In this document: piece by piece, positions 2,952 through 63,552 of the stretch
Layout: each line of letters begins with the position of its first letter
How positions within the stretch are numbered: position 1 is the first letter of the stretch
Assembly (NCBI GenBank): GCA_028817035.1
Contig: JAPPQH010000010.1
Location: forward strand, 11,546 to 75,545
Length of the DNA stretch: 64,000 nucleotides
Reading direction: 5' to 3'
From: Candidatus Campbellbacteria bacterium
GTDB taxonomy: Bacteria > Patescibacteriota > Minisyncoccia > Phycocordibacterales > JABAAK01
Made by a program: the position numbers and the translations under genes
Notes under the pieces: model-generated
What the model was told of the DNA's origin: nothing
Database searches by the model: none
The model's input: only the letters and a program-made list of their open reading frames with translations

Positions 2952-3995
2952 TTACTTGTCTCTATCGGTGTTGATAACCCAATCCTTTGAAACTCTTTCT
3001 GCTTCAATGTTAAAGTCGGTAGGTCCAGCAGAGCGACCATACAACTTATACCCAACTTTTTTAGGACGACCTCCAAGTGGCCTTCCGGGGATCGGAACAA
3101 TAAACTTTTTGGCATCGCCCAATAAATACGCCCTCAGTGCCAATATGTTACCATGCAAAAGTTCTTGAAAAGTAACTATCTGCCTTGTTTGATGTGTATA
3201 AACTTTTTTATCAAGTAAGTCTTCTACGCCCTTAGTCGCAAATGCAACCAAATTTTTGTTATCCCTGTTAGTTTTATGTACTCCTTTTATTGTTTCAAAA
3301 ATATTTTTTTCAATATAACCTCTGTAGGGTTCCATAAGATCATATACAAGTGATGGATAGTCAGTTGGTATATGCATAAATCCGTGGTATGGACTCATTT
3401 TGTGATAGGTTATATATCTCAAAATCACACCGCTGATTAACTTGGACACTGCGTTTAACACAGAGCTTATAACATTTTTTCTATTTCTTCTTTCTGATTC
3501 TTTGTTTCCCAATTTTGCATAATACTTCTTCCAATACCTCACCGCATGAAGTGCTTCTATAGATCTTAAGTCCTTTACACTTTTTGCAAATTTTATCTTA
3601 TGTATTGTGTGTTTATTGTTGGGCAGAAGCCACTCCATTGATTTCACTTTTGCTAACAATAATTTCCTTGCTATATGTAAAGATTTTATTTTATTTTCTC
3701 TGAAAATAATTTGTTTAGTCAGTATGTCATCTATATTCGTTGTTGTGGTACCAGTAATCCATATAGCCTTTGACATATGCCTTCTATGTATGCAAATTGG
3801 TATGTTATATCTAATGCATAACTGTAAAAACTCTTCATCCAAAGGACATACAGCACCATAAAATAAAATTGAGGAAATTCTACTCCATGGAATATCAAGC
3901 ACTCCGCCCTTGAATTTAAAAGTAGCCTTGTCTTTTTGCCAAGAAATATCGCTAGTATATGGCAACCAAATTGGTATTTTACTTTTTCCTGGCAT
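2952..3995 (-). CDS. cas1: CRISPR-associated endonuclease Cas1
   Basis: 347 aa; conserved Cas1 catalytic region SPYHGFMH...LVYDLMEPYR; directly flanks CRISPR array; 17-nt overlap with upstream effector gene. Confidence 0.9.
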   Translation of the reverse strand: MPGKSKIPIWLPYTSDISWQKDKATFKFKGGVLDIPWSRISSILFYGAVCPLDEEFLQLCIRYNIPICIHRRHMSKAIWITGTTTTNIDDILTKQIIFRENKIKSLHIARKLLLAKVKSMEWLLPNNKHTIHKIKFAKSVKDLRSIEALHAVRYWKKYYAKLGNKESERRNRKNVISSVLNAVSKLISGVILRYITYHKMSPYHGFMHIPTDYPSLVYDLMEPYRGYIEKNIFETIKGVHKTNRDNKNLVAFATKGVEDLLDKKVYTHQTRQIVTFQELLHGNILALRAYLLGDAKKFIVPIPGRPLGGRPKKVGYKLYGRSAGPTDFNIEAERVSKDWVINTDRDK

Positions 3996-6900
3996 TTTTA
4001 CTTATAATATCATTAAAGGATTTTCTTGGCATGTTTAACTTTACTGGTTTGAAACCCATATCTTTGTATTTGTTCATTTCATCTTGGAAATTGGCTTTTG
4101 TATTTTTCTTATCTTTCTTAAACCAAGCCCTTAAACCTATAATCAAAGATGCTTGTATATCTGCATCTGATATATGTCCACAGCCCTTAAATGGGCAAAC
4201 AAAAATTCCAGAGTTTCCTGCTGTCTCGTAAAACTTTTTCCGTTCCTTGTTATCATATTTCTTGAAGAAAGCGTCTTTTATAACTGGATGGTCTTTAAAA
4301 GACTCGCTGTTTAATTTAACATTCTTTTCATTTTCTACATCAAAGATTGGAGGTCTTGCAAAATCTTGTATAGATTTTATTAGTTCTTTTGTTTTCATAG
4401 CACCCTTCTTTTTATCTCCCTCCAAAAAGCCATACACTTCTTGCCCATTATCTATAGTTGCTTTTATATATTTACTATTATTGATTCTTTCCCACTCCCA
4501 AGAAACTTCTTCTGTTTCCTTCTTTTTGCTTGCTTTCTTTTTAGACTTTTCATTTTGCATATCTCTTATAGTGTACAAACTTCTCCAACATTCTGTACAT
4601 ACATAACTTGTCCCGTAAGCACTTTTATGAACACCAATAAAGTTACTAGTGCCCCATACATGCTCTCTTGTCATTTTTTCTGACGGATTATTTTCTGTTG
4701 CAACATCCGCAGTTTTTACTGTTTTATATAAAGCAGTCAATCGAGAGCTACCCGTCTCAAAGTTACTTATTGAAAGCTCATAACTTGGTATCGCATTATA
4801 CCGAACAGCCACATCATGTATACGGTTTTTTAATGAACTACTTATTGATTTTCTGATTTCTGCAAGTTTTGTATTAGAGGATGTAAAGGTCGCTGCTTTT
4901 TGTTTTTCTTTGTTCTCTTTGAATCGCTCTCTGACTTTCCTTATTCCTTTTTCATAATCAAACCAAGAAAATAAAAGTTTTTTATTTTTAATATCTATTA
5001 AAGAAAAGGCGAGACCATATTCACCAACATCTATGCCAAGATACCTATTCCTTTCTTCAAGCTCTGCCTTTATTTCTTTTTGTCCCAAATTCTTTTTTAC
5101 CTTTAACTCAAATGGAATAGAGATAAAGATTTTGGAACTACCCCTCACTTTATTAAAAACTGGCTGATCTTTTGACCAGTCAATTTGATAATCTTCTTCT
5201 CCTATAAATGAATAATCAGAAATTTTTACATCAAAATCCTTATTAATAGAATTGCCAAAAAATGGAGAAGATTCGTTCAAAAATTGAGTTTGGTATTTTG
5301 AACTTTGGATCTTAAAACCACAATTAATATTTTCAACTGGTATAAAGTTCTTCTTCTTTGATGGGTCCTTTGTCTTATCTGATAATTGTAAAAAGTCTGT
5401 TTCTGTTTTTGTTTTAGATAAGTTTTCCTTTTTGGCTATATACCAAAGATTATCTTTTTTATCAAAAACCAGAGGAAAATCAGCACCAGAACCCATGGGC
5501 TGAACAACATATCTTTCTTTAAATATTTTTTTGCTTAATATATTTAGCGTTCCCTTCATTTCTGCAAAGAAATATCTTTGCAAAATTGTATTAATTTTAT
5601 CTCCATCCAATGTCTTACCCTCTTGTAATTTTAGATATTCCCCAGCTTCTTCAAAACGTTTAGTTTTAGAGAAATTTTTTAGAAAATCACTTTTACTGAC
5701 ACTTATCTTTTTATAGTAAGTAATTAATCCTATTCTAATCTTTTCAAGTTCAATAGCATCAATATGTTCTCTTATATTTTCTAATTTTCTTTTCTTAAAA
5801 TCAGGTCTCAGTAAATCAATTAATTTTGGTATTGAATCAAAAATTTCTTCTATATTTTTACCTAATTCTAACTCTTTCCAATTTCCTCTTCTCTTATACT
5901 TTGTAAAAACTTCTTTCTCCTTAAGTCCTTTAATATCAATGCCTGTTGTTGTTGTGATTGCCTTTTGAATTATATTCTGTGCCCAAGGGGTTGAATCTTT
6001 GTATAGATTGTTTAAAGTATCAAATCTTCTTAACAATGTAATTTTTTCATTCTCAACATCTTCATCTTCAATTTTCCTTAATTCTAAATCATTATCTAAC
6101 ATCTTTCTTAATCGTTCAATTATATCCAAACCATCTTTGTACATTTCTTTTGAATTCAATATTTTTGTCAAGTGCTCTTTTTTTCTTATACCAGGAAAAG
6201 TTGGAAATTTTGGCAATGTCGCAAAAACTGATTTATATTTATTTCTCTCTTTCTTCAATTCTTTTTCTTCCATCTCTGGATTTTGTGCTTGTATAAATTT
6301 ATTTAATTCAACACGAAGATCGCCTAAAATTCTTGAGTATATATCAAATGATTTCGCCAATAAATTAGTTTTTATTGATTTATTTAGATTTATCAACTCA
6401 TTTGTTAAATTTTTTAATCTATCAATATTTTTATTATTTTTTTCTTTGATAATATCAAGCAAAGTTTTTAAATGCTCTTCATGTCCAGGAACCCCTACAT
6501 CTTTGCCATCCTTATCTTTTTTGGTATATCCAAACAAAACATGGTCTATGTCTTCTTTTTGATTTTCTGTATTACTTATCCAAGAACTTAATTTACCGCC
6601 CATCGTTGTTCTATATTCTGCCCAACTTTTTGCCATATATGGTGTTTCGGGTAATAATTTTGCACGGGACGATAACCATTTTAATCTTTTTTCTAATTCT
6701 TTTTCTTTACCCTTCCATAAATCAGAGTTAATATTTAATATCATTTCTTTTGCTTTATCTATATCACCTTCACGAACCGGTTTAAGGAATTTATTAAAGG
6801 CATAACTTAGTGGGTTATGATTGGTTGCCATAGCCAAAAAAGAGATTGGGTTTTCGCCATACTTTTTCCTTACTCTGTCTATTAAATCCTGTTCTTTAAC

Positions 6901-7650
6901 ATCTTCTTTGGCAAACTCAAAATCTGGGTGTATAAACAACGCACCTTCATTATTACCTTTTTCTATAAAACTAACTCCAAAATTTTTTGACCAAAATTCT
7001 TTTTGTTTATCTGCTTTTATAGTCTCGCCATCCGACTTACAAATCCCTTTGTATATCTGTTCTGTGTATTTCCTAACCTCTTTTCTATTTTTTATATATA
7101 TACTGTGCTTAAAAATACCTGTTTTACCCTTTAATTTTTCTTCATTTTTATCTTTTGATAAAATTCCTTCAATTCTATCTTGATTACCATAAAATATATT
7201 TTTTATTTCTTCTTCTCCAGATTTCTTTCTTACACCGCCAGAGAGCCTTATTTTATTATTAAAAGAATCAAAATCTATTAAATCAAAGAATTTTAGATCT
7301 TTCTTCTTCATATCCTTCTTGACCTCATTATTAGCACTGTCATCTATAAAACTCTTTATTTTAAATACATTGTCATGAAACACACTTCCAACTCTTAGAA
7401 AATCAAGATATAAATCAAATAATGAATATTCTCCTCTGCCATCTTTCAATGTTGTTGCATTAAACTGACCAACTTGACCTTCATAATCACATCTTATCTG
7501 ATTCATAAGATTTTCTGTTTCTGATTCATCCTTAAATACAATTGGAAATTTTATTGTTCTGATTGCCTTACCACCAGTATATTTTAACCTTCTTAGATGA
7601 AGTTTATAACCTGTCATTCCCTTGTATTTTCTTGATCGTTTTGCTTTCAT
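3979..7650 (-). CDS. cas12d: type V-D CRISPR effector Cas12d (CasY)-like nuclease
   Basis: 1223 aa. RuvC-I LGIDVGEYGLAFSLID (D874, codon at 5029-5031), RuvC-II ...IPSYELSISNFE (E958), zinc ribbon CTECW (C1018/C1021) ... CPFKGC (C1152/C1157), RuvC-III SDADIQASLIIG (D1162/D1164). N-terminus GYKLHLRRLKYTGGKAIRTIKFP and motif WAEYRTTMGGKLSSW resemble published CasY N-terminal/helical motifs as recalled. Operonic with cas1 and short-spacer array. Confidence 0.85.
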   Translation of the reverse strand: MKAKRSRKYKGMTGYKLHLRRLKYTGGKAIRTIKFPIVFKDESETENLMNQIRCDYEGQVGQFNATTLKDGRGEYSLFDLYLDFLRVGSVFHDNVFKIKSFIDDSANNEVKKDMKKKDLKFFDLIDFDSFNNKIRLSGGVRKKSGEEEIKNIFYGNQDRIEGILSKDKNEEKLKGKTGIFKHSIYIKNRKEVRKYTEQIYKGICKSDGETIKADKQKEFWSKNFGVSFIEKGNNEGALFIHPDFEFAKEDVKEQDLIDRVRKKYGENPISFLAMATNHNPLSYAFNKFLKPVREGDIDKAKEMILNINSDLWKGKEKELEKRLKWLSSRAKLLPETPYMAKSWAEYRTTMGGKLSSWISNTENQKEDIDHVLFGYTKKDKDGKDVGVPGHEEHLKTLLDIIKEKNNKNIDRLKNLTNELINLNKSIKTNLLAKSFDIYSRILGDLRVELNKFIQAQNPEMEEKELKKERNKYKSVFATLPKFPTFPGIRKKEHLTKILNSKEMYKDGLDIIERLRKMLDNDLELRKIEDEDVENEKITLLRRFDTLNNLYKDSTPWAQNIIQKAITTTTGIDIKGLKEKEVFTKYKRRGNWKELELGKNIEEIFDSIPKLIDLLRPDFKKRKLENIREHIDAIELEKIRIGLITYYKKISVSKSDFLKNFSKTKRFEEAGEYLKLQEGKTLDGDKINTILQRYFFAEMKGTLNILSKKIFKERYVVQPMGSGADFPLVFDKKDNLWYIAKKENLSKTKTETDFLQLSDKTKDPSKKKNFIPVENINCGFKIQSSKYQTQFLNESSPFFGNSINKDFDVKISDYSFIGEEDYQIDWSKDQPVFNKVRGSSKIFISIPFELKVKKNLGQKEIKAELEERNRYLGIDVGEYGLAFSLIDIKNKKLLFSWFDYEKGIRKVRERFKENKEKQKAATFTSSNTKLAEIRKSISSSLKNRIHDVAVRYNAIPSYELSISNFETGSSRLTALYKTVKTADVATENNPSEKMTREHVWGTSNFIGVHKSAYGTSYVCTECWRSLYTIRDMQNEKSKKKASKKKETEEVSWEWERINNSKYIKATIDNGQEVYGFLEGDKKKGAMKTKELIKSIQDFARPPIFDVENEKNVKLNSESFKDHPVIKDAFFKKYDNKERKKFYETAGNSGIFVCPFKGCGHISDADIQASLIIGLRAWFKKDKKNTKANFQDEMNKYKDMGFKPVKLNMPRKSFNDIISKNARKK

Positions 7651-7698
7651 ATCAGTTTATTTTAGCACAAAGACTTTTATTTTGGAATAAAGCGATAT

Positions 7699-7735
7699 AA
7701 AAAAAAAGCCCCGAGGCTCGAAGAGCACTCGGGGC
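7699..7735 (-). terminator. Rho-independent terminator for gene 7761..8234
   Basis: GC hairpin gccccgag-N12-ctcggggc (7708-7735) followed on minus strand by T9 (A-run 7699-7707 on plus). Confidence 0.7.
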
Positions 7736-7760
7736 GTAATTCGGTTAGAGGAGAAACGGT

Positions 7761-8234
7761 TTATTCACCATCCTGTGTTGAGTCAGCATCCTGCATCAAC
7801 TTCATAAACTCGTCTCGCGCAACCTCGTTTTGTTCCTGGTTGCGTTCACTATAACCTTCGTTTGCAGCATCTCGCAAATCACTCTCTGCAGGACCGATTT
7901 CAGGTGTTGGAGCTTTGTCATACTCTCGGACTTGCTCCTCAAGCAGAGGATTTGCGGGCTGTATCACCGTTTTGGGTCGATACCCCATTTCTACCTGTGA
8001 GTAGATAATGGCTGCCGCAAAAAACACCATCCAGAGACCGATGCACCACTTGTTTGACCAAAGTACATCGCCGACTGGAGACGCTCTTTCGCTTCCGTCA
8101 ACCATTTTGGGGTCTGCTTGCTCCACTTGGTTCGCCATCCTGCGCCAAATAGCAACTGCCGAAACAATCACTACAAGCCACAGAACAACTTTGATAAGAG
8201 CAAACCCAAAGACTGAGATGGCAGTGATATCCAT
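7761..8234 (-). CDS. hypothetical membrane protein (2 TM, acidic C-terminus), co-operonic with SPFH protein
   Basis: 157 aa; higher-GC than genome background; 13-nt gap to upstream SPFH gene. Confidence 0.5.
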   Translation of the reverse strand: MDITAISVFGFALIKVVLWLVVIVSAVAIWRRMANQVEQADPKMVDGSERASPVGDVLWSNKWCIGLWMVFFAAAIIYSQVEMGYRPKTVIQPANPLLEEQVREYDKAPTPEIGPAESDLRDAANEGYSERNQEQNEVARDEFMKLMQDADSTQDGE

Positions 8235-8246
8235 AACATACCTCCT

Positions 8247-9200
8247 TTACTTTTCTTGGTTCGATTCTGCCATGGCGTTGTTGAGTGTGCCCATAAGGAC
8301 TGCGGGATTCTTAAATCCCTCGAAGGGCATTACAAAGACACGACCATCTGGATTTTTGGCGAGTGTCTCCATAATCTTCAACCAACGCTGAGTGACAAAT
8401 GGTTCACTCACACTGTCAGCAAGTACGCGATTGACAAGCGCTTGAGTTTCTGCCTCCTTGAGGTCAACCTCCTGTTGTTTTTTAGCAACTTCAAGGGCAG
8501 CATCTGCCTGTTTCAAAGCTATCTGCTTTTCAGCTTCAGCTTTTTGAATCCCGATTTCGCGTTCTTTTCTGTTTTCCTGAGCAGTGACAACGATTTGGGG
8601 TGGCTGAATATCAGCCAAACCAAACCTTATGGTCGTGATAGGAGTCGATTTCAAACGCTCACGAATATCCTTCACAAGCATAGCAGAAATTTCGCTTCGG
8701 TTTTCCATCACCTGTGCGATACTGTGCTCGGCAAGGATTGAGCGGACTGCTTCACGAACGACCGGCTGTCCATAGGTGTTGTAGACCTTTGCCATTGAAA
8801 TCAGTCGGACACGATTGCTTGGTTGTTGGTCGGCAGTCACACGACTAAAGACCTTTTCAACATTTTCTTTGTCAGAGCTGATTGCAAACACGCCACGCAC
8901 ATCCACATTGAGGTTCAGTTGGTCCTTTGGCATAAAGATTACCATCTGTTCCAAAACCGCATGGTCTGATGCCTCAACGAGGATGAGAGAGTCACAGTTC
9001 CAACAAAAACCTTCCAGCCTAAACTTTGAAGGCTGTATGATCTTTTCTTGAAGACCAGACTCAGTCGAGAGTTTGCCGACATGGGCAGGTGGCACTTCAA
9101 CTCTCTCGCCACACCCCCCCATGGCAAACATGCCCAGCAAAATTGCCATCATTGCAATAGTTTTTTTCACGAGTTTTCCTCCTCTGTGTAAAAGGTTCAA
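8247..9200 (-). CDS. SPFH/band-7 (stomatin/prohibitin-like) lipoprotein
   Basis: 317 aa; signal peptide with lipobox-like AMGGC; band-7 core and long Ala/Glu/Lys coiled-coil (EREIGIQKAEAEKQIALKQADAALEVAKKQQEVDLKEAE); GC-rich. Confidence 0.7.
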   Translation of the reverse strand: MNLLHRGGKLVKKTIAMMAILLGMFAMGGCGERVEVPPAHVGKLSTESGLQEKIIQPSKFRLEGFCWNCDSLILVEASDHAVLEQMVIFMPKDQLNLNVDVRGVFAISSDKENVEKVFSRVTADQQPSNRVRLISMAKVYNTYGQPVVREAVRSILAEHSIAQVMENRSEISAMLVKDIRERLKSTPITTIRFGLADIQPPQIVVTAQENRKEREIGIQKAEAEKQIALKQADAALEVAKKQQEVDLKEAETQALVNRVLADSVSEPFVTQRWLKIMETLAKNPDGRVFVMPFEGFKNPAVLMGTLNNAMAESNQEK

Positions 9201-9363
9201 AACATGGGCTTTCTCAAGCCCAATGCTATTTTATAGAATAGCATATATATTGAAAAATATCAAGTACCCATATTTATGGCAAAAACCCTTTTTGCAACTC
9301 TTCGGTTTGGTGGCACAAAGGCACTTTGTGTGGGTGGAGTTGTTGGTCTTATGTTATGAAAAA

Positions 9364-9921
9364 TTATATTGATAGTTTTTTTCTTGCGGTTTCAAATAGA
9401 GTTAGAGTTTCGTCAGACAAAATGAAAGGTATGAAACGCTCTTTGTCTTCTTCGGCGAGTCTCGGAAGTATTTCAACGCTCCACACTTCAAAACCTAATA
9501 TCTCCCCCTCTTCTACGACAAGCGCCTCAATAGGTTGTGTGTGTGTGTATGCGTATTGCGCTCTGATGGTGTTGTTTATTAAACCTGTAGTTGTGTCTAT
9601 GGAACGCTCTGCGCTTTTAGTAAGAAAAATTAGTTCGCTTGAGTCAATGTCAATTCCTGTTTCTTCTCTGCATTCTTTGACGGCTGTTTCCTCGTAGGAC
9701 ATCCCTGGTTCAACATGACCACCCACACTGGCATCCAGTCGGTCTGGATATGTGTCTTTGTTTTTTGCTCTGTGTTGAAAGATAATTTCACCTCTCGGAG
9801 TAAAAAACCAAATATGCACTTCTCTGTGGAGTAGTCCCTCTTTGTGTATCTTTGTGCGATTTTCAAGACCAATAACTTCGTCTTGCTCGTTCACAACTTC
9901 AAGCATCTCATTATTGTTCAT
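9364..9921 (-). CDS. Nudix hydrolase
   Basis: 185 aa; Nudix box GGHVEPGMSYEETAVKECREETGI (Gx5Ex7REUxEExGU). Confidence 0.85.
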   Translation of the reverse strand: MNNNEMLEVVNEQDEVIGLENRTKIHKEGLLHREVHIWFFTPRGEIIFQHRAKNKDTYPDRLDASVGGHVEPGMSYEETAVKECREETGIDIDSSELIFLTKSAERSIDTTTGLINNTIRAQYAYTHTQPIEALVVEEGEILGFEVWSVEILPRLAEEDKERFIPFILSDETLTLFETARKKLSI

Positions 9922-9988
9922 TAGGGTAATTTTAACACGGAAATTTTTACCTCTTAACGAAAAGAAATTGCTCTGTGGGGAAACCCGA

Positions 9989-10399
9989 TCACTCGGCGAG
10001 ATTGAGTTGCCACGAGACGCCGTAGCGGTCTTCTACCCACACAAACAATTTACTAAAGCCGTAGTTGCCTAAGGGCATGTGTTCCCTGCCTTCATTACAG
10101 GGTTCTTTGTGGATATGTCTGATTTCATCTTCACTGTCACACTCAATAAAAATGGAGGTTGCGGGTGTAAATGAGAATTTGTGGTCTGCGGGGTTTTCTG
10201 ATGCCATGTACTCAGTGCCAGCGAGTGTAAACAGTGCAGTTTTGACTTGTCCTGCGACGCCCATTGGCTCATCGCCACTCCACCTTTTAATGCTCTTGAT
10301 TTCTGAGTTTGGTATAAGTGATGTGTAAAATTTTAGCGCTTCTTCTGCCTTACCACATTTATCACCAACAAACATAAGGAATGTTTTTGTTTTTTGCAT
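9989..10399 (-). CDS. VOC-family (PhnB / 3-demethylubiquinone-9 3-methyltransferase-like) protein
   Basis: 136 aa; C-terminal YGFSKLFVWVEDRYGVSWQLN typical of PhnB-like glyoxalase-fold proteins. Confidence 0.7.
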   Translation of the reverse strand: MQKTKTFLMFVGDKCGKAEEALKFYTSLIPNSEIKSIKRWSGDEPMGVAGQVKTALFTLAGTEYMASENPADHKFSFTPATSIFIECDSEDEIRHIHKEPCNEGREHMPLGNYGFSKLFVWVEDRYGVSWQLNLAE

Positions 10400-10485
10400 A
10401 GGGATAATTATATACTATATTTTTTTAACAAACATTGTCTGCCTGTTTTGACTTTTGTGACTTTTATAAATAAACAGCGACCTTG

Positions 10486-10557
10486 TGACCCTACGGGGAA
10501 TCGAACCCCGATTTTCGCCGTGAAAGGGCGATGTCCTGGCCGTTAGACGATAGGGCC
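10486..10557 (-). tRNA. tRNA-Glu (anticodon UUC)
   Basis: Reverse complement folds as GGCCCTA/TAGGGTC acceptor, anticodon stem TCGCC/GGCGA with loop CTTTCAC, T-arm CGGGG-TTCGATT-CCCCG; CCA not encoded. Confidence 0.8.
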
Positions 10558-10612
10558 AATGATAAGATTATACTCTAAAATTATAAACCCTTCCCAGTTA
10601 TGGGAAGGGTTG

Positions 10613-10685
10613 TGACCCAGCGGGGATTTGAACCCCGATTTTCGCCTTGAAAGGGCGATGTCCTCACCGGTTAGACGACAGGGTC
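10613..10685 (-). tRNA. tRNA-Glu (anticodon UUC), second copy with divergent acceptor stem
   Basis: Anticodon arm TCGCC-CTTTCAA-GGCGA; T-arm CGGGG-TTCAAAT-CCCCG; acceptor GACCCTG/CTGGGTC has one T-T mismatch in the canonical register (alternative register GTGACCC/GGGTCAC is perfect but gives non-canonical junctions). Confidence 0.6.
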
Positions 10686-10740
10686 ACGGTTGAAATTGTA
10701 AACCCCTCCCATTTGCGGGAGGGGCTGTATGCAAGGTGAA

Positions 10741-10902
10741 TCACTTCCTGCGGAGTTCCTTGTTGCGTTCCAAACCAAAAGCGACCTCTGGCGGTAGCGG
10801 TAAATCAGAAGGAAGTCCGCATTGATCACAAAAATCCACCGTGGGTTCGTTTTCCTTCAAGCATGTGGAACACTTCCAACCTTCTGCGCCTGCAAGACAC
10901 AT
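10741..10902 (-). CDS. small zinc-ribbon protein (53 aa), unannotated in ORF track
   Basis: Translates MCLAGAEGWKCSTCLKENEPTVDFCDQCGLPSDLPLPPEVAFGLERNKELRRK with CxxC...CxxC; GGAGG 8 nt upstream of ATG; followed by hairpin cccctccc-N6-gggagggg (10702-10728). Confidence 0.35.
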   Translation of the reverse strand: MCLAGAEGWKCSTCLKENEPTVDFCDQCGLPSDLPLPPEVAFGLERNKELRRK

Positions 10903-11052
10903 ATCAGTACCTCCGTTGATTTTTGCAAAAGAACTTTGGGGTTTAACCCATTTTTATATGCTATCATATCTCCCAAAATATGTCAAGTATAAGAAAAGCC
11001 GATAATCAAGCCCATTACCTTAACCTAAATCTTTTAGTATAATTACCATGTT

Positions 11053-11126
11053 GGGCGATTAGCTCAGTTGGCTAGAGCGCTCCCTTGACGTGGGAGAGGT
11101 CACAGGTTCGAATCCTGTATCGCCCA
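11053..11126 (+). tRNA. tRNA-Val (anticodon GAC)
   Basis: GGGCGAT/ATCGCCC acceptor, D-arm GCTC-AGTTGGCTA-GAGC, anticodon arm CTCCC-TTGACGT-GGGAG, T-arm ACAGG-TTCGAAT-CCTGT. Confidence 0.85.
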
Positions 11127-11174
11127 CATTCTCATATTTACATTTACACTTAATTATCATATTATATTATTTAT

Positions 11175-17979: not shown

Positions 17980-18148
17980 AAATGCTGATTAATGTGATAT
18001 AATTAGGAAATAATAAATGTATTAAGAATACTATGGAAAAAATGAGAAAAATAATAGCGACAATAATAGCGATATTGCTCGCGATAATAATGATAGCTTC
18101 TTTATTCCTGCCGTTCTTCTATTAATATTTGCAGTATTTATAGGGGGG

Positions 18149-18177
18149 TTGACAAGATTGGGGTTGTTTGATATACT
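18149..18177 (+). promoter_or_regulatory. sigma70-type promoter TTGACA-N17-TATACT for first REC/zinc-finger gene
   Basis: Direct reading 18149-18154 TTGACA, 18172-18177 TATACT; the whole promoter/5'UTR block is duplicated at 19164-19330. Confidence 0.55.
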
Positions 18178-18315
18178 CAAAAATAGTACTGCTCTTTCAC
18201 AAAAAAGGAGGTAAAAGGCAGACAAAGAATTTATGTTTTGAAAGGGTGCCCTTAGGTGCCCAAAATGCCACTCGCAACCGTGAGTGGTCCCACAAACCAA
18301 CAAAAGGAGAACGGT

Positions 18316-19089
18316 ATGCAAAAGCAAACCAACCCTGCCCTGGGTAAAGAGGGCACCACCCCCCTTCGCGTTCTCGTCATTGATGACAGCGAACGCCACC
18401 AAAAGAGTGCGCGACTCACCCTCGCGGACCACGATCTCACGATCGTTGGGACTTACGAGGAGGCAGAGAAGATCCTGCTTCCTGCCATCTATAAGGCAGG
18501 TGGCCCGAAGGTGGAGGAAGAGATGGAGCGTCTCGGTTTTAGCACTGACGTTAAGTCATACAAGGACTGGGAAGAGTTCCGCAAGGTCCAGAAAGAAATC
18601 GCCAAGAAGCTCTTCCCGACCTTTGACGCAGTCCTCTGCGACCTGCTTATGCCAGTGGTGCATATGTCGGTTTTGAGGGAGCAGAAGAATGAGGAGTATG
18701 CCGGGGAGGAAATGCCCTTCGGCTTCAGCCTCGCTTTCCAGGCAGCTAAGCATGGTGCGAAGTATGTGGCGGTTGTGACTGACACCGGTCATCACGACCA
18801 CCCTGCATCCGCAATGCTTGACCCCCTAAGTTTTAAGGTTCAATTCACAATTACCGGCTTCCATCGCCATCGCGGTGTAACAACTGGCGACAGATATGGT
18901 GCTGCTGTAGGTTTCTACAACAGCCCAAAGATGGTGGAAGTGGAAGGGGTATGCCATGCCTGCGACGGCACTGGACAACGGCATGACAGCGAATACAAGT
19001 GCCCGACCTGCAGAGGGTCTGGCAGCGCTCGGGGTAAGGACTGGGGGTGTATCCTCAAGAAACTCCTTGCCGCTGGCGAGACTGCCTGA
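18316..19089 (+). CDS. receiver (REC)-like domain protein with C-terminal DnaJ-type CxxCxGxG zinc-finger pair, paralog 1
   Basis: ATG at 18316 with AAGGAG RBS (ORF track starts at an upstream GTG, 18256). RVLVIDDSE beta1-like, VLCDLLMP phospho-acceptor-like Asp, His-rich TDTGHHDHP, C-terminal CHACDGTG...CPTCRGSGSARG; ~55 percent GC. Confidence 0.6.
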   Translation: MQKQTNPALGKEGTTPLRVLVIDDSERHQKSARLTLADHDLTIVGTYEEAEKILLPAIYKAGGPKVEEEMERLGFSTDVKSYKDWEEFRKVQKEIAKKLFPTFDAVLCDLLMPVVHMSVLREQKNEEYAGEEMPFGFSLAFQAAKHGAKYVAVVTDTGHHDHPASAMLDPLSFKVQFTITGFHRHRGVTTGDRYGAAVGFYNSPKMVEVEGVCHACDGTGQRHDSEYKCPTCRGSGSARGKDWGCILKKLLAAGETA

Positions 19090-19111
19090 CACCTCCGACG
19101 ACGACCACACG

Positions 19112-19153
19112 GCCGCTCAAGAGCTTTTGCTTGCGAGCGGTCGTTTTTATTTT
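19112..19153 (+). terminator. Rho-independent terminator after paralog 1
   Basis: gccgctc...gagcggtc hairpin followed by gtttttatttt. Confidence 0.6.
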
Positions 19154-19163
19154 AATCTTGGGC

Positions 19164-19193
19164 TTGACAAGATTGGGGGTCTTGTGCTACAAT
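19164..19193 (+). promoter_or_regulatory. sigma70-type promoter TTGACA-N18-TACAAT for paralog 2
   Basis: 19164-19169 TTGACA, 19188-19193 TACAAT; preceded by the same ttttattttaatcttggg junction as the paralog-3 promoter. Confidence 0.55.
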
Positions 19194-19331
19194 TAAAAAT
19201 AGTACTGCTCTTTCACAAAAAAGGAGGTAAAAGGCAGACAAAGAATTTATGTTTTGAAAGGGTGCCCTTAGGTGCCCAAAATGCCACTCGCAACCGTGAG
19301 TGGTCCCACAAACCAACAAAAGGAGAACGGT

Positions 19332-20117
19332 ATGCAAAAGCAAACCAACCCTGCCCTGGGTAAAGAGGGCACCACCCCCCTTCGCGTTCTCGTCATTGAT
19401 GACAGCGAACGCCACCAAAAGAGCGCCCGACTCACCCTCGCGGACCACGATCTCACAATCATCGAGACGCATCAGGAGGCGCTTGTGACCTTGAATCGGG
19501 AAGATTTTCCCAGGCTTTATAGCAAAAAGGTGAAGGAAGAGATGGAGTGTCTCGAGCTTAACCCCGATTCATATGGGAGTCCGAGTGAGTATCTTAGGGC
19601 ATGTGACAAGGCAAGGGAGGAGATTGTTAACAAGCACTTTCCACCCTTTGCCTTTGATGTCGTCCTCTGCGATCTGTTCATGAAGCCAGCGGCAAATATA
19701 GTGAACACCATGGATGGTAGAGAAAGCTTGAGGTGGAGGAAGGAGAAGTTTGCCCGAGAGGAAATGCCGGCTGGTTTCGGTCTTGTCCTCATGGCAGTGG
19801 ACAACCCCTTTCATAGTGTGAAGTATGCGGCGGTTGTGACTGATACCAATCACCATGACCACCCTGTTTCTGCTATGCTTGACTATGTAACCCATAGTCA
19901 AGGAGAGAAACCTCGCTTCAAAATCAACGGAGCGACGGTAGGTTTCTACAACAGCCCAGAGATGGTGGAAGTGGAAGGGGTATGCCATGCCTGCGAAGGT
20001 ACTGGGCAAATTGACAGCGACTACGATTGCGAGACCTGCAGAGGGTCTGGCAACGCCCGGGGTAAGGACTGGGGACTCGTCCTCAAGGACCTCCTTGCCG
20101 CTGGCGAGACTGCCTAA
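19332..20117 (+). CDS. receiver (REC)-like domain protein with C-terminal DnaJ-type CxxCxGxG zinc-finger pair, paralog 2
   Basis: First ~40 codons and 5'UTR identical to paralog 1, then diverges; VVLCDLFMKP, TDTNHHDHP, CHACEGTGQ...CETCRGSGNARG. Confidence 0.6.
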   Translation: MQKQTNPALGKEGTTPLRVLVIDDSERHQKSARLTLADHDLTIIETHQEALVTLNREDFPRLYSKKVKEEMECLELNPDSYGSPSEYLRACDKAREEIVNKHFPPFAFDVVLCDLFMKPAANIVNTMDGRESLRWRKEKFAREEMPAGFGLVLMAVDNPFHSVKYAAVVTDTNHHDHPVSAMLDYVTHSQGEKPRFKINGATVGFYNSPEMVEVEGVCHACEGTGQIDSDYDCETCRGSGNARGKDWGLVLKDLLAAGETA

Positions 20118-20135
20118 CGCCTCCGACGACCACAC

Positions 20136-20178
20136 GACCGCTCAAAAGCTATGGCTTGCGAGCGGTCGTTTTTATTTT
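20136..20178 (+). terminator. Rho-independent terminator after paralog 2
   Basis: gaccgctc-N16-gagcggtc then gtttttatttt. Confidence 0.65.
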
Positions 20179-20188
20179 AATCTTGGGG

Positions 20189-20217
20189 TTGACATAAGAG
20201 ATTTAATATATTATCCT
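20189..20217 (+). promoter_or_regulatory. putative promoter (TTGACA, weaker -10) for third REC-like gene
   Basis: ggggTTGACAtaagagatttaatatattatcc; AAGGAGG RBS 8 nt before ATG 20253. Confidence 0.4.
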
Positions 20218-20252
20218 TAATTTAGCTGAACTTTTCAAAAAGGAGGAAAGAT

Positions 20253-20681
20253 ATGATTGTTAGCGTCTACATCGTGGACCATCGGATCCACAGGGCCAAA
20301 AGGCTCTGGAAACTTTCTGGCTGTGGGAATCGCAAAGATGCCTTTGAACTACTGCCTGCCGAACCGTTTAATTCTATTGAACGGACTTGCGAAAGGGTGA
20401 AGAATCTCAGACCAAATGTGATATTGGTCAATTATGACCTGGGGCAAGGTCGGCGTCTTAATGGCGTTAATGTTGTTCGTGCTCTTATCATTGAAGGGTA
20501 TAAAGGTCACATCGTCGCAAACTGTGCCAAAGGTGCTGAGAGATTCGGTCCATCTGGTGTGAAAGTGGATGGAGATACAAACAGAAAGCCTCGTGGTTTG
20601 TGGAATGCACTTGAGCAATCTCGCAAGTGGTATGATAAAAATAGACCACTGTTAGAGGTACCCTCAAGTCCATCTGCTTGA
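20253..20681 (+). CDS. single-domain receiver (REC)-like protein, degenerate
   Basis: 142 aa; VYIVDH (beta1-like), NVILVNYDLGQG (phospho-acceptor-like Asp), VVRALIIEGYKGHIVANCAKG; no output domain; GC-rich. Confidence 0.45.
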   Translation: MIVSVYIVDHRIHRAKRLWKLSGCGNRKDAFELLPAEPFNSIERTCERVKNLRPNVILVNYDLGQGRRLNGVNVVRALIIEGYKGHIVANCAKGAERFGPSGVKVDGDTNRKPRGLWNALEQSRKWYDKNRPLLEVPSSPSA

Positions 20682-20696
20682 TCCCACCCAACGAAC

Positions 20697-20740
20697 GACC
20701 TTCCGCGGTTATAAAAACTGCGGAAGGTCGTTTTTATTTT
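20697..20740 (+). terminator. Rho-independent terminator after third REC-like gene
   Basis: perfect 10-bp stem gaccttccgc / gcggaaggtc followed by tttttatttt. Confidence 0.8.
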
Positions 20741-20767
20741 GGTTTCTTTTGAGTATCTGTCTAGATC

Positions 20768-61095: not shown

Positions 61096-63552
61096 CTATT
61101 TTTCTAACCTATGAATATGAATATTGGGATATTGCCTTTCGAGTTTATTAAATTCTTCATCACTCATATTTCGGCTAACAACTAGTCTTTCTAAATTATA
61201 AGGACGACGTGGTGGTGGAAATTCTTCTGCATTTGTGAGACCTTTGAGTTCAAGCCACCAAACACTCTCAGGTATCTTCAACCCTTCTGCAGTTTTGAGA
61301 CCGTTGAGAGAAAGCCTCTTCACACTCTCAGGCATCTTCAACCCTTCTGGGTTTGTGAGACCGTTGAGAGAAAGAATCTTCACACCCCCAGGTATATTCA
61401 ACCCTTCTGGGTTTGTGAGACCGTTGAGTTCAAGATGCTTCACACCCTCAGGTATATTCAACCCTTCTGGGTTTGTGAGACCGTTGAGTTCAAGATGCTT
61501 CACACCCTCAGGTATATTCAACCCTTCTGGGTTTGTGAGACCGTTGAGTTCAAGATGCTTCACACCCTCAGGTATCTTCAACCCTTCTGCAGTTTTGAGA
61601 CCGTTGAGATAAAGCTCCTCCACACCCTCAGGTATATTCAACCCTTCTGGGTTTGTGAGACCGTTGAGATAAAGCCACCTCACACCCTCAGGTATATTCA
61701 ACCTTTCTGGGTTTGTGAGACCGTTGAGAGAAAGACCCCTCACACCCTTAGGTATCTTCAACCCTTCTGGGTTTGTGAGACCGTCGAGAGAAAGAATCTT
61801 CATGCCCTCAGGTATATTCAACCCTTCTGGGTTTGTGAGACCGTTGAGAAAAAGTGCCATCACACCCTTAGGTATCTTCAACCCTTCTGCAGTTTTGAGA
61901 CCGTTGAAATCAAGTTCCAACACACCCTCAGGTATATTCAACCCTTCTGGGTTTGTGAGACCGTTGAGATGAAGATGCTGCACGCCCTCAGGTATATTCA
62001 ACCCTTCTGGGTTTGTGAGACCGTTGAGAGAAAGTGACCACACACCCTCAGGTATATTCAACCCTTCTGGGTTTGTGAGACCATTGAGTTCAAGATTCTC
62101 CACACCCTCAGGTAATGGCGGAATGTCTTTTATATTTGTGGTTGAAAGAATAATTATGTATTCACCCCCAACAACAATTGGAAATTTAGTTCCGCCGTTT
62201 CTTTTTAGTTCTGCTAATTCTTTATCTTCAATTAATAAATTCCCAAGGTGATACACGCATTTACCAGATAGGGCTTCTTCTTCCGAAGTGCTTATTTGAT
62301 CCTTTGGAACACCAAAGATATATGCAACATCTTCTATTTTATCTCTTCCTCTCAGTATTTCTTCTATCATCTCTTCACCTCCTAAGAAGTTGTGTATCTT
62401 GCCATCAATTTCATATAGAAAGCGTAGGTCTTCTTTTGATATTGATAGTGGGCTGTTGTGGATCTCTGTAACCCGTTTCATGTCCTCCGCTGCCTTGTTG
62501 TATCTCTCCGCTTCTTGTGGGTATTCCTCAAGCTTTTCTTTGAGGACAGGGAATATGTATTCATCTAATGTTTGCCCCTCTTCTATCCCGCTTATCTCGC
62601 GTATACCTTTCCCTCTAAACGCTATCGTCAATCTTGGGATAGTGGGGTCTCCTCTTTTATCATTGGAATAGTAGATAAGGGCATCTCCATTGTCTAAGTA
62701 CCCTTCGCAAGTATTGATAGAACCTTCTAAACACCAGCCAGTGTGATGTCCTTGAAGTGAATCAAACATTTCTTTTTCTTGTCCTTTTGTAAATCTTCTC
62801 CACTTACCATCAATCACCTCAAGATGCTCAGCACCTCTGTTTCTTTTCAATATCTCCATCCTTCTGATGTATGCCTTTACAAAGTTTTTGTTCTCTAAGT
62901 ATGTTCTAAATTCCTCATCTTCTGTTTCTATGTCCTTACCTTCCACTATCTTATTGAAATGCTCATATATTCCCGCAAGGGCTTGTTTGTTTAATGTTAG
63001 GAATGGTTTTGCTGTGTATTTTGTTCTTTTGTAGAATTGCTTCTCATTTACTTTGTATTCACCCACACGCAACACATTCTTTAGGGCAAGGAACTTAAAC
63101 CAAAGGGGATATGCGTCTGTCTCATGTGATGCAAAATACTCTATCCAATTGTAGAGACTATCCTCTTGGTCTCCTATCACCCTTTCTGCATATTCTTTCT
63201 TCAGTCTTGGAATCTCACTCTTTGTTATGTCCTCACCCCATGATATGTCCTTACCCCTATCTCTTTCTATTTTTAGATGATTATTAAATGCCTTAGATAT
63301 ATTCTCCTCTTTTATGATATGGTTTCTCTTCACCATCCTCCATATCGCCTCTACCCCTCTTTCCCTCTTTTGTTCGTCCTCCCTTTGCAACACTTGTGCA
63401 TAACGATCCAGAAATACCTTAATAATTTCTTCTGGCTTGTCTATCTTTTCACCAGTCCTTACCTCCTCCCTTTTTGCAGGTCCTCTAATCTTTTTGAATA
63501 AATGTTGGTCGGCACCTCCCAAGAACTCTGCACCCATCTTGTTTTCTTTCAT
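61096..63552 (-). CDS. leucine-rich-repeat protein (about 20 tandem 22-aa LNGLTNPEGLNIPEGVxxLxLNG repeats) with ~470-aa N-terminal domain of unknown function
   Basis: 818 aa; repeats encoded by near-identical 66-bp DNA units; no signal peptide seen; conserved C-terminal tail ERLVVSRNMSDEEFNKLERQYPNIHIHRLEK. Confidence 0.7.
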   Translation of the reverse strand: MKENKMGAEFLGGADQHLFKKIRGPAKREEVRTGEKIDKPEEIIKVFLDRYAQVLQREDEQKRERGVEAIWRMVKRNHIIKEENISKAFNNHLKIERDRGKDISWGEDITKSEIPRLKKEYAERVIGDQEDSLYNWIEYFASHETDAYPLWFKFLALKNVLRVGEYKVNEKQFYKRTKYTAKPFLTLNKQALAGIYEHFNKIVEGKDIETEDEEFRTYLENKNFVKAYIRRMEILKRNRGAEHLEVIDGKWRRFTKGQEKEMFDSLQGHHTGWCLEGSINTCEGYLDNGDALIYYSNDKRGDPTIPRLTIAFRGKGIREISGIEEGQTLDEYIFPVLKEKLEEYPQEAERYNKAAEDMKRVTEIHNSPLSISKEDLRFLYEIDGKIHNFLGGEEMIEEILRGRDKIEDVAYIFGVPKDQISTSEEEALSGKCVYHLGNLLIEDKELAELKRNGGTKFPIVVGGEYIIILSTTNIKDIPPLPEGVENLELNGLTNPEGLNIPEGVWSLSLNGLTNPEGLNIPEGVQHLHLNGLTNPEGLNIPEGVLELDFNGLKTAEGLKIPKGVMALFLNGLTNPEGLNIPEGMKILSLDGLTNPEGLKIPKGVRGLSLNGLTNPERLNIPEGVRWLYLNGLTNPEGLNIPEGVEELYLNGLKTAEGLKIPEGVKHLELNGLTNPEGLNIPEGVKHLELNGLTNPEGLNIPEGVKHLELNGLTNPEGLNIPGGVKILSLNGLTNPEGLKMPESVKRLSLNGLKTAEGLKIPESVWWLELKGLTNAEEFPPPRRPYNLERLVVSRNMSDEEFNKLERQYPNIHIHRLEK
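61235..62110. repeat. array of ~13 tandem 66-bp coding repeats (several copies 100 percent identical)
   Basis: e.g. cacaccctcaggtatattcaacccttctgggtttgtgagaccgttgagttcaagatgctt repeated back-to-back at 61440, 61506. Confidence 0.85.

Follow-up and report, generated by a model that had tools for sequence, protein, structure and literature searches.

An atypical receiver family with an HHxHP motif, represented by a tandem gene pair in a Campbellbacteria genome

A 64-kb stretch of a metagenome-assembled genome of Candidatus Campbellbacteria (Candidate Phyla Radiation (CPR)/Patescibacteria), hereafter the window, contains a cassette of three consecutive genes, g1, g2 and g3, each annotated in NCBI as encoding a hypothetical protein (Table 1). 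An initial annotation of the cassette described receiver-like proteins joined to DnaJ-type zinc knuckles. The locus raises the question of what kind of proteins these are, how they might act and how the tandem came about. Patescibacteria account for a large share of bacterial diversity, and their sensing and regulation are poorly understood. Our data show that the core of g1 and g2 is a genuine (beta-alpha)5 receiver and, judged by sequence profiles, that both proteins, far from being a one-off fusion, are members of a still unnamed family seen for the most part in Patescibacteria. With a probability of roughly 0.55, we read them as tandem stand-alone CheY-like orphan receiver switches that would act by protein contact, a function suggested by conserved residues and a structure model. 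Receivers as such are already known; what is added here is an atypical, unnamed, mainly CPR receiver family, whose new features are an invariant HHxHP motif, an optional zinc module, a pairing with TrmB-type regulators and a family-wide excess of GC at third codon positions (GC3).

Receiver core and family of g1 and g2

The receiver character of g1 and g2, originally proposed from their first motifs, was borne out by both a structure model and a profile comparison. The AlphaFold2 model, built on a 37-sequence alignment (pLDDT 84.6, pTM 0.82), has the (beta-alpha)5 flavodoxin-like receiver fold, and hhalign aligned the family profile with a receiver (REC) profile of seven sequences (CheY, Spo0F, PhoB, NtrC, OmpR, FixJ and NarL) at 97% probability and an E-value of 1e-10. 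The alignment pairs D23/D24 (g1 numbering is used throughout) with CheY D12/D13, D109 with D57 and T155 with T87. Residue conservation was computed in 220 family representatives: D24 is present in 98%, an acidic residue (D/E) at position 23 in 98%, D109 in 100% and Thr or Ser at position 155 in 100% (T 88%, S 12%). The sole conserved lysine is K241 (98%), followed by W243 (99%), and it belongs to a G-K-(D/N)-W motif in a short strand directly ahead of the terminal helix, an arrangement that mirrors K109-P-F111 followed by alpha5 in CheY. K241 is probably the fifth active-site residue. Thus the expected conservation of the receiver Asp and Thr positions was found, and for the Lys there is a candidate, the alignment register of which is discussed below.

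Database searches place the two proteins in a large group of relatives. A word-indexed search returned 86 proteins at 29–57% identity, the named ones being 'hypothetical' or 'CheY-like chemotaxis protein' entries from Patescibacteria, and a 37-member profile matched 1257, 993 and 334 cluster representatives at E-values of at most 1e-3, 1e-10 and 1e-30, respectively, among 1.84 billion. The family size of about 1,000 counts clusters at 50% identity. Against this profile g1 scores 254 bits and g2 233 bits. A scan of species-representative genomes yielded 79 loci, and most named records come from many Patescibacteria lineages (Uhr-, Falkow-, Wolfe-, Kerfeld-, Nomura-, Moran-, Doudna-, Buchanan-, Vogel-, Taylor-, Zambryski-, Komeili-, Berkel-, Azam-, Staskawicz- and Peribacteria); about 12 records are labelled otherwise, in most cases with an automatically assigned 'Gammaproteobacteria' or 'Bdellovibrionales' name, and these labels were taken as given. 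The view that such a domain combination is absent from described families holds in so far as neither g1 nor g2 significantly matched any described family in Pfam, NCBIfam, PHROGs or PADLOC, and our literature searches found no description of the HHxHP family. The combination is, however, not unique to this locus, given the 993 cluster representatives at E-values of at most 1e-10, and the clusters labelled only 'hypothetical' or 'CheY-like' form a coherent atypical receiver family.

The family motif set, ILVIDD, (C/S)DLLMP, GQEMPxG, (N/G)HHxHPAS and GKDW-helix, is complete in both g1 and g2. Its hallmark is the sequence (N/G)-H-H-x-H-P-A-S directly after T155, in which H159 and H160 are present in 100%, H162 in 93% and P163 in 96% of the representatives; the His-rich motif noticed in g1 and g2 at the outset is thus shared by the whole family. 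Also conserved are D169 (98%), H39 (89%) and G136 (100%), the last in the GQEMPxG loop after beta3. Compared with the canonical REC domain (PF00072), the family differs by a score below the Pfam cut-off, by the invariant HHxHP after the Thr and by three insertions. One is a helical insert between alpha2 and beta3, variable in length (0–50 residues) across the family and corresponding to the insertion of about 40 residues first estimated for g1 and g2, which we find as a helical segment of about 45 residues; the others are the GQEMPxG loop and a beta-hairpin with or without a zinc module.

The hairpin bears zero to two DnaJ-like zinc centres depending on the member. In g1 the knuckles span C213-G220 and C229-G236, each a CxxCxGxG unit. 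The module is optional: 98 of the 220 representatives lack CxxC altogether, two are present in 75 and three or four in 32, so that 107 have at least two. The initial annotation saw the two CxxCxGxG units as the end of the proteins. The DnaJ-type signature is recognizable (Pfam DnaJ_CXXCXGXG, 23 bits, E 9e-5, below the cut-off of 32.7), but the GKDW motif and the terminal helix come after it, and the hairpin and zinc-knuckle segment (about residues 176–236) is best understood as an insertion inside the receiver, not a C-terminal fusion. Repeated CxxCxGxG knuckles are shared with the DnaJ zinc-finger domain (PF00684) and with Anti-TRAP (PF15777), which gave a weak profile match (E 3e-3, likewise below its gathering threshold), and Foldseek found a local match to a phage DnaJ-like protein. 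Otherwise Foldseek returned only weak receiver matches from PDB (best E 0.016) and no significant match from BFVD. DnaJ itself has four knuckles and two zinc centres, whereas g1 and g2 have two knuckles and one predicted zinc centre, lack the J domain and the C-terminal substrate-binding domains and carry the module within the receiver. They fall outside the definition of the DnaJ CR-domain, four CxxCxGxG units in a J-protein, although some relatives have three or four CxxC. Long family members showed no additional known domain, so that no Rosetta-stone fusion joins the receiver to a kinase or to TrmB.

It is more difficult to place g3. Only one near-identical homolog was found among 5.8 billion proteins, and g3 alone reaches an hhalign probability below 3% against REC. 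It matches, at 27% identity and a pairwise E-value of 1e-7, a 132-residue protein encoded between two family genes at the locus L025, which is its only homolog outside its own population, and the profile of these two sequences reaches 94% probability against REC (E 1e-7, 110 columns). The earlier description of g3 as a stand-alone degenerate receiver thus gains support once this intermediate sequence is included and gains none from g3 by itself. At the acidic pair g3 has D9-H10, at the acceptor position N60 with an Asp two residues later, and at the Thr/Ser position N90/C91; K112-P113 are the only canonical residues kept. From these residues it is plausible that g3 is a degenerate, aspartate-less receiver, which could possibly serve as a decoy or adaptor. 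With other aspartate-less or pseudo-receivers it shares the colinear REC alignment (obtained together with the L025 homolog) and the Lys-Pro ahead of the last helix; it differs from them by the near-absence of homologs, and its receiver fold is putative.

Genomic partner, proposed mechanism and alternatives

For the neighbourhood analysis, 1,080 neighbouring open reading frames (ORFs) from 72 loci were clustered. The only conserved cluster is a protein of about 250 residues that carries the winged-helix domain of TrmB and occurs at 62 of the 72 loci. It shares this domain with the TrmB family (PF01978; TrmB and TrmBL2 of Thermococcales) at E-values of 1e-12 to 1e-18 and matches PDB entries of both TrmB and TrmBL2. 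Among the 67 family genes with enough upstream sequence, 39 have a divergent TrmB gene within 1.1 kb upstream, while about 4% would be expected from the density of TrmB genes elsewhere in the same loci, and the association holds both with and without the zinc module. This conserved divergent regulator, seen in other genomes, escaped the initial annotation, which was right that no cognate histidine kinase is nearby: none was found within about 7 kb on either side of the cassette, and no kinase cluster exists among the neighbours at the 72 loci. In this respect also the family departs from PF00072 receivers, its neighbourhoods having a TrmB-type regulator as the conserved member and no histidine kinase. 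Our literature searches found no pairing of a TrmB-type regulator with a receiver protein. A k-mer search for a shared operator in 41 intergenic regions between TrmB and receiver genes (drawn from loci L001–L093) recovered only the promoter boxes TATTGACAA and GCTATACT; these being the most enriched words, near-consensus −35 and extended −10 elements are common in the divergent regions, as they are in the window.

Some of these loci have arrangements worth recording. Nearby paralogs of the family recur in L010, L025, L029, L033, L050 and L057. L025 (positions 5000–8800) holds a comparable multi-receiver array in another genome, consisting of a divergent TrmB gene, a knuckle-bearing family gene, genes for a 138-residue unassigned protein, the 132-residue receiver-like protein and a 127-residue unassigned protein, and a knuckle-less family gene. 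At L004 (3000–11200) and L014 (5600–10500) the family gene lies within runs of small same-strand hypothetical genes with long spacers; the L014 run is GC-rich, and both runs look like variable islands downstream of a TrmB gene.

How might such proteins work? In our preferred reading g1 and g2 would be orphan single-domain response regulators. The phosphoryl group on D109 would come from a kinase encoded at another locus or from a small phosphodonor, for example acetyl phosphate. T155 and the neighbouring His cluster, the latter perhaps also a transition-metal ligand, would transmit the switch. The output would be the alpha4-beta5-alpha5 face, from which the hairpin and zinc module are predicted to protrude, in contact with a partner protein. 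The likeliest class of partner would be the TrmB-family winged-helix regulator, the divergent neighbour of family members in most other genomes.

The His cluster can also be read differently. The proteins might be metal-sensing or metal-handling pseudo-receivers, in which HHxH, the acidic pocket and the residues H39, D169 and E132 make up a site for Zn, Ni, Fe or Mn, so that metal status is reported or buffered without phosphorylation of the Asp and the cysteine knuckles form a second metal site. The conservation of H159, H160, H162, H39 and D169, which is above that of some canonical receiver positions, would fit this, as would the Cys4 knuckles in half of the members and the lack of a histidine kinase partner in any examined neighbourhood. 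However, aspartate-less receivers normally lose the acidic pair, the acceptor Asp and the Thr/Ser. Here these residues are conserved at 98–100%, and K241 at 98%, which is hard to explain without phosphoryl chemistry; moreover, half of the family does without the zinc knuckles. We therefore regard a purely metal-based function as possible but unlikely. The same invariant residues around the predicted active site, in stand-alone proteins with no output domain, could also belong to an enzyme built on the receiver fold, in which D109 would be the nucleophile and the His cluster would provide general acid/base catalysis or bind a metal. An example would be a HAD- or DHH-like phosphatase or phosphodiesterase with a small molecule or a nucleotide messenger as its substrate. 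The segment VVTDxNHHxHP resembles motif III of the DHH family (..TDHH..). Such an enzyme seems to us quite improbable.

It should be noted that several observations weigh against the reading of g1 and g2 as orphan receiver switches. The Pfam Response_reg model (PF00072) gives 12.9 bits for g1, far from its cut-off of 30.2, and no match for g2; precomputed PF00072 matches exist in only a few family members. The equivalence of K241 and CheY K109 is tentative, as hhalign put K109 elsewhere or two residues off, and aligning the C-terminal 24 columns alone, or a spliced alignment, left the register of the two lysines ambiguous. Well-studied receivers have nothing equivalent to the invariant HH pair, and a different chemistry is conceivable. 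The whole 64-kb window has no TrmB homolog, so the divergent arrangement seen elsewhere is missing and the proposed partner is not local here; besides, the TrmB regulator might be linked to the family through transcription alone, controlling expression of the divergent gene without touching its product. Phosphorylation, metal binding and partner contact would all go beyond the fold and the residue conservation, from which we infer them. As to g3, its single-sequence AlphaFold2 model (pLDDT 36) is unusable and its assignment depends on a single intermediate sequence.

A broader proposal, which we make tentatively and consider unlikely to hold as a whole, is a 'split response regulator', in which the HHxHP receiver would be paired with the divergently encoded TrmB-type regulator in a kinase-free module of two genes, largely specific to Patescibacteria. 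The receiver would integrate a metabolic phosphodonor and/or a transition metal via the His cluster and directly control a separate winged-helix DNA-binding protein. If this were true, the split module could be a main signal-transduction route in reduced-genome episymbionts, and the family-wide GC3 excess described below would be a mark of selection, or of biased gene conversion, acting on a gene in heavy use. Independently of this proposal, the family gives Patescibacteria a concrete candidate signalling module that can be tested, and for the receiver field it is a natural experiment on how a His cluster beside the switch Thr affects phosphoryl chemistry.

Origin and integrity of the tandem

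The three genes form separate transcription units, and each has a strong promoter, a good Shine-Dalgarno (SD) sequence (in g1, GGAG 7 nt 5' of the ATG) and an intrinsic terminator. All three promoters are of the near-consensus sigma-70 type, with TTGACA as the −35 element in each and a TG-extended −10 element in P1 and P2. Five copies of the word GGGNTTGACA are present in the window (0.68 expected), and P1, P2 and P3 account for three of them. The terminator hairpins (−23.4 to −31.7 kcal/mol, z −5.65 to −7.98) share the tail GGTCGTTTTTATTTT, found three times against 0.02 expected, and a stretch of 71 nt at the junction between terminator and promoter is duplicated; the two copies are 93% identical and, by inspection, have an exact core of 34 nt. 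The TTGACA boxes with a preceding G-run, the Rho-independent terminator of each gene and the repeated junction, all listed by the initial annotation, are confirmed at their positions and exceed chance expectation.

Identity at the 5' ends of g1 and g2 was described as an identical promoter and 5' untranslated region of 170 nt followed by about 40 codons. An exact repeat does exist, but it is only 229 nt long, comprising 137 nt of leader and 30 codons, and the −10 boxes and spacers of P1 and P2 are not identical. The leader common to the two genes is predicted to fold into two strong hairpins, GGGUGCC/GGUGCCC and CCACUCGC/GUGAGUGG, with a minimum free energy of −41.6 kcal/mol (z −2.9). Rfam gave no match to the 131-nt leader (15–22 kb scanned at E-values of at most 1, only two tRNAs being found), and nhmmer and blastn searches of all fetched loci found it only in its own population, with no similar leader in 94 other loci. 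The leader also contains an SD-like AAGGAGG about 20 nt ahead of a two-codon ORF, ATG-TTT-TGA.

The two genes are mutual closest relatives, with 57% amino acid identity to each other and at most 44% to any other family member. Synonymous divergence (dS) between them is strongly uneven: 0.11 in codons 1–42, 1.24 in codons 43–195 and 0.22 in codons 196–257, and the ratio of nonsynonymous to synonymous divergence (dN/dS) in the middle segment is 0.30. This mosaic supports an old duplication, long diverged in a middle part under purifying selection and homogenized at both ends by gene conversion. The cassette is a lineage-specific duplication shaped by gene conversion. Of the two processes first suggested to accompany the duplication, gene conversion fits these data and diversification does not, since diversifying selection is rejected by dN/dS values of 0.27–0.43 in the divergent segments.

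Repeats of this kind call for a check of the assembly, as a chimeric join, or strain variants of one gene set in tandem, could produce the tandem or the jump in GC content. An independent 96.8-kb scaffold of the same population (L095/L097) has the same cassette and the same flanks at 99.9–99.99% identity, except at window positions 18234–18330. The matching part of the scaffold (L095:5000–5440, minus strand) contains a run of N exactly in the repeated leader of g1, together with a different g1 N-terminus, MKTPPLVLGNEGTTTVLGNEDNRALGNEGTTP instead of MQKQTNPALGKEGTTP; this N-terminal tail is longer, has three LGNE(G/D) repeats, and its net length change preserves the reading frame from an ATG further upstream (window 18265). 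It is therefore possible that the assembly overstates the perfect match between the 5' ends of g1 and g2, which is perhaps partly the assembler's choice. Short-read contigs also break at the repeats: Logan k=31 contigs of run SRR10996920 stop at window positions 18208 and about 20158 (the latter converted from L098 coordinates). These ends lie about 30 nt inside the exact repeats, which is the pattern expected of real repeats at k=31 and indicates that the repeats exist in the reads. The unique T1-P2 and T2-P3 sequences link the genes, and if each segment is used once the order g1-g2-g3 is forced as the sole linear path. A contig from another sample begins 36 nt 5' of g3 and runs on into the genes for a metallo-beta-lactamase (MBL)-fold protein and LepA. 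Outside the deviating segment the 76-kb contig and the 97-kb scaffold agree at 99.9%, in the cassette as well as in its two flanks. An assembly artefact is extremely improbable, and we conclude that the repeats and the tandem order are real.

The high GC content of the cassette was originally given as about 55% for all three genes. This is correct for g1 (55.4%) and nearly so for g2 (52.8%), but g3 has only 46.2%; the window mean is 38.8%. In GC3, g1 (0.63) and g2 (0.60) are the top two of the 55 ORFs of the window (median 0.33, standard deviation 0.08), and AAG makes up 81% of their Lys codons versus 27% in host genes, G-ending codons being included in the excess. High GC is nevertheless not a mark of this cassette. 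Across loci L001–L094, family genes exceed their neighbours in GC3 by a median of 0.115 (positive in 84%, Wilcoxon p = 1.7e-10), the TrmB genes adjoining them show no such excess (−0.03), and family GC3 follows host GC3 (slope 0.69, r 0.63); the excess in the window (+0.3) is the upper end of this family-wide property. Expression-linked codon bias, GC-biased gene conversion and frequent transfer are candidate causes of the general effect. Translational selection was rejected for g1 and g2, because G-ending codons such as AAG rise like C-ending ones and the housekeeping reference genes are AT-rich at third positions. The G-ending codons in the upper-end excess make a recent transfer of the cassette from a GC-richer relative possible.

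A more far-reaching explanation of the same codon usage is that the cassette was acquired recently, as a mobile, phage-derived or defence element whose role lies in conflict rather than in housekeeping signalling. Its surroundings offer some hints of this: tRNA-Phe and tRNA-Arg genes lie just upstream, the promoter-terminator modules are self-contained, the TrmB partner is missing from the window, and some homologs elsewhere are located near KilA-N/ORF6N, integrase and TraG-like genes. However, no relative was found on phage or plasmid sequences in IMG/VR, GenBank phages or PLSDB, PADLOC and PHROGs yielded nothing significant, as did the fold search of BFVD, and neither the annotated genes nor repeat searches around the cassette revealed an integrase or a repeat-flanked boundary. 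The flanks are syntenic across independent assemblies, and GC3 that is elevated throughout the family and tracks the host is at least as suggestive of an intrinsic property as of transfer. A mobile or defence origin is thus improbable; in the tests run the cassette is real, well delimited and not phage- or plasmid-borne. A metagenome scan with the neighbouring MBL protein for relatives without the cassette returned distant MBL proteins only.

Feature coordinates and surroundings of the cassette

Table 1. Genes, regulatory elements and repeats of the cassette, in window coordinates
Feature	Position	Strand	Description
g1	18316-19089	+	257 aa; MDD9868001.1, hypothetical protein
g2	19332-20117	+	261 aa; paralog of g1 with the same architecture; MDD9868002.1, hypothetical protein
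g3	20253-20681	+	142 aa; orphan protein; MDD9868003.1, hypothetical protein
P1 (promoter of g1)	18149-18177	+	TTGACA, 17-nt spacer, TG-extended TATACT; GGGGGG in front; 11/12 consensus positions
P2 (promoter of g2)	19164-19193	+	TTGACA, 18-nt spacer, TG-extended TACAAT
P3 (promoter of g3)	20189-20217	+	TTGACA, 17-nt spacer, TATCCT; GGGG in front
T1 (terminator of g1)	19109-19153	+	intrinsic; −24.6 kcal/mol, z −5.65, then U-tract
T2 (terminator of g2)	20134-20178	+	intrinsic; −23.4 kcal/mol, z −5.85, then U-tract
T3 (terminator of g3)	20693-20740	+	intrinsic; −31.7 kcal/mol, z −7.98, then U-tract
5' leader of g1	18185-18315	+	about 131 nt; start placed from the −10 box
5' leader of g2	19201-19331		leader shared with g1
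Exact repeat, copy 1	18179-18407	+	229 nt: 137 nt of leader and 30 codons
Exact repeat, copy 2	19195-19423	+	229 nt: 137 nt of leader and 30 codons

The cassette is flanked by housekeeping genes on both sides. Upstream are genes for a rhodanese, TsaD, a class I tRNA synthetase, Hsp20, tRNA-Phe, tRNA-Arg and a glutaredoxin, with the cassette 0.9 kb away from the tRNA-Arg gene on its downstream side; the MBL-fold hydrolase, LepA and MurJ genes follow downstream. Directly 5' of P1 lies an ORF for a hydrophobic peptide of 30 residues (MEKMRKIIATIIAILLAIIMIASLFLPFFY; 18034–18126, plus strand), which is called as a gene in the independent scaffold too.

Two very large ORFs on the minus strand, at 3979–7650 (1223 residues) and 61096–63552 (818 residues), have no Pfam match at E-values of at most 1e-5. 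A second patch of accessory genes with moderately enriched GC (GC3 0.45–0.47, compared with the median of 0.33) occupies positions 7761–10399 of the minus strand. It encodes an SPFH/Band 7 protein, a NUDIX protein, a PhnB-like 3-dmu-9_3-mt protein and a 157-residue protein with no assignment, adjoins two tRNA-Glu genes and a tRNA-Val gene (10485–11127) and may be another acquired island.

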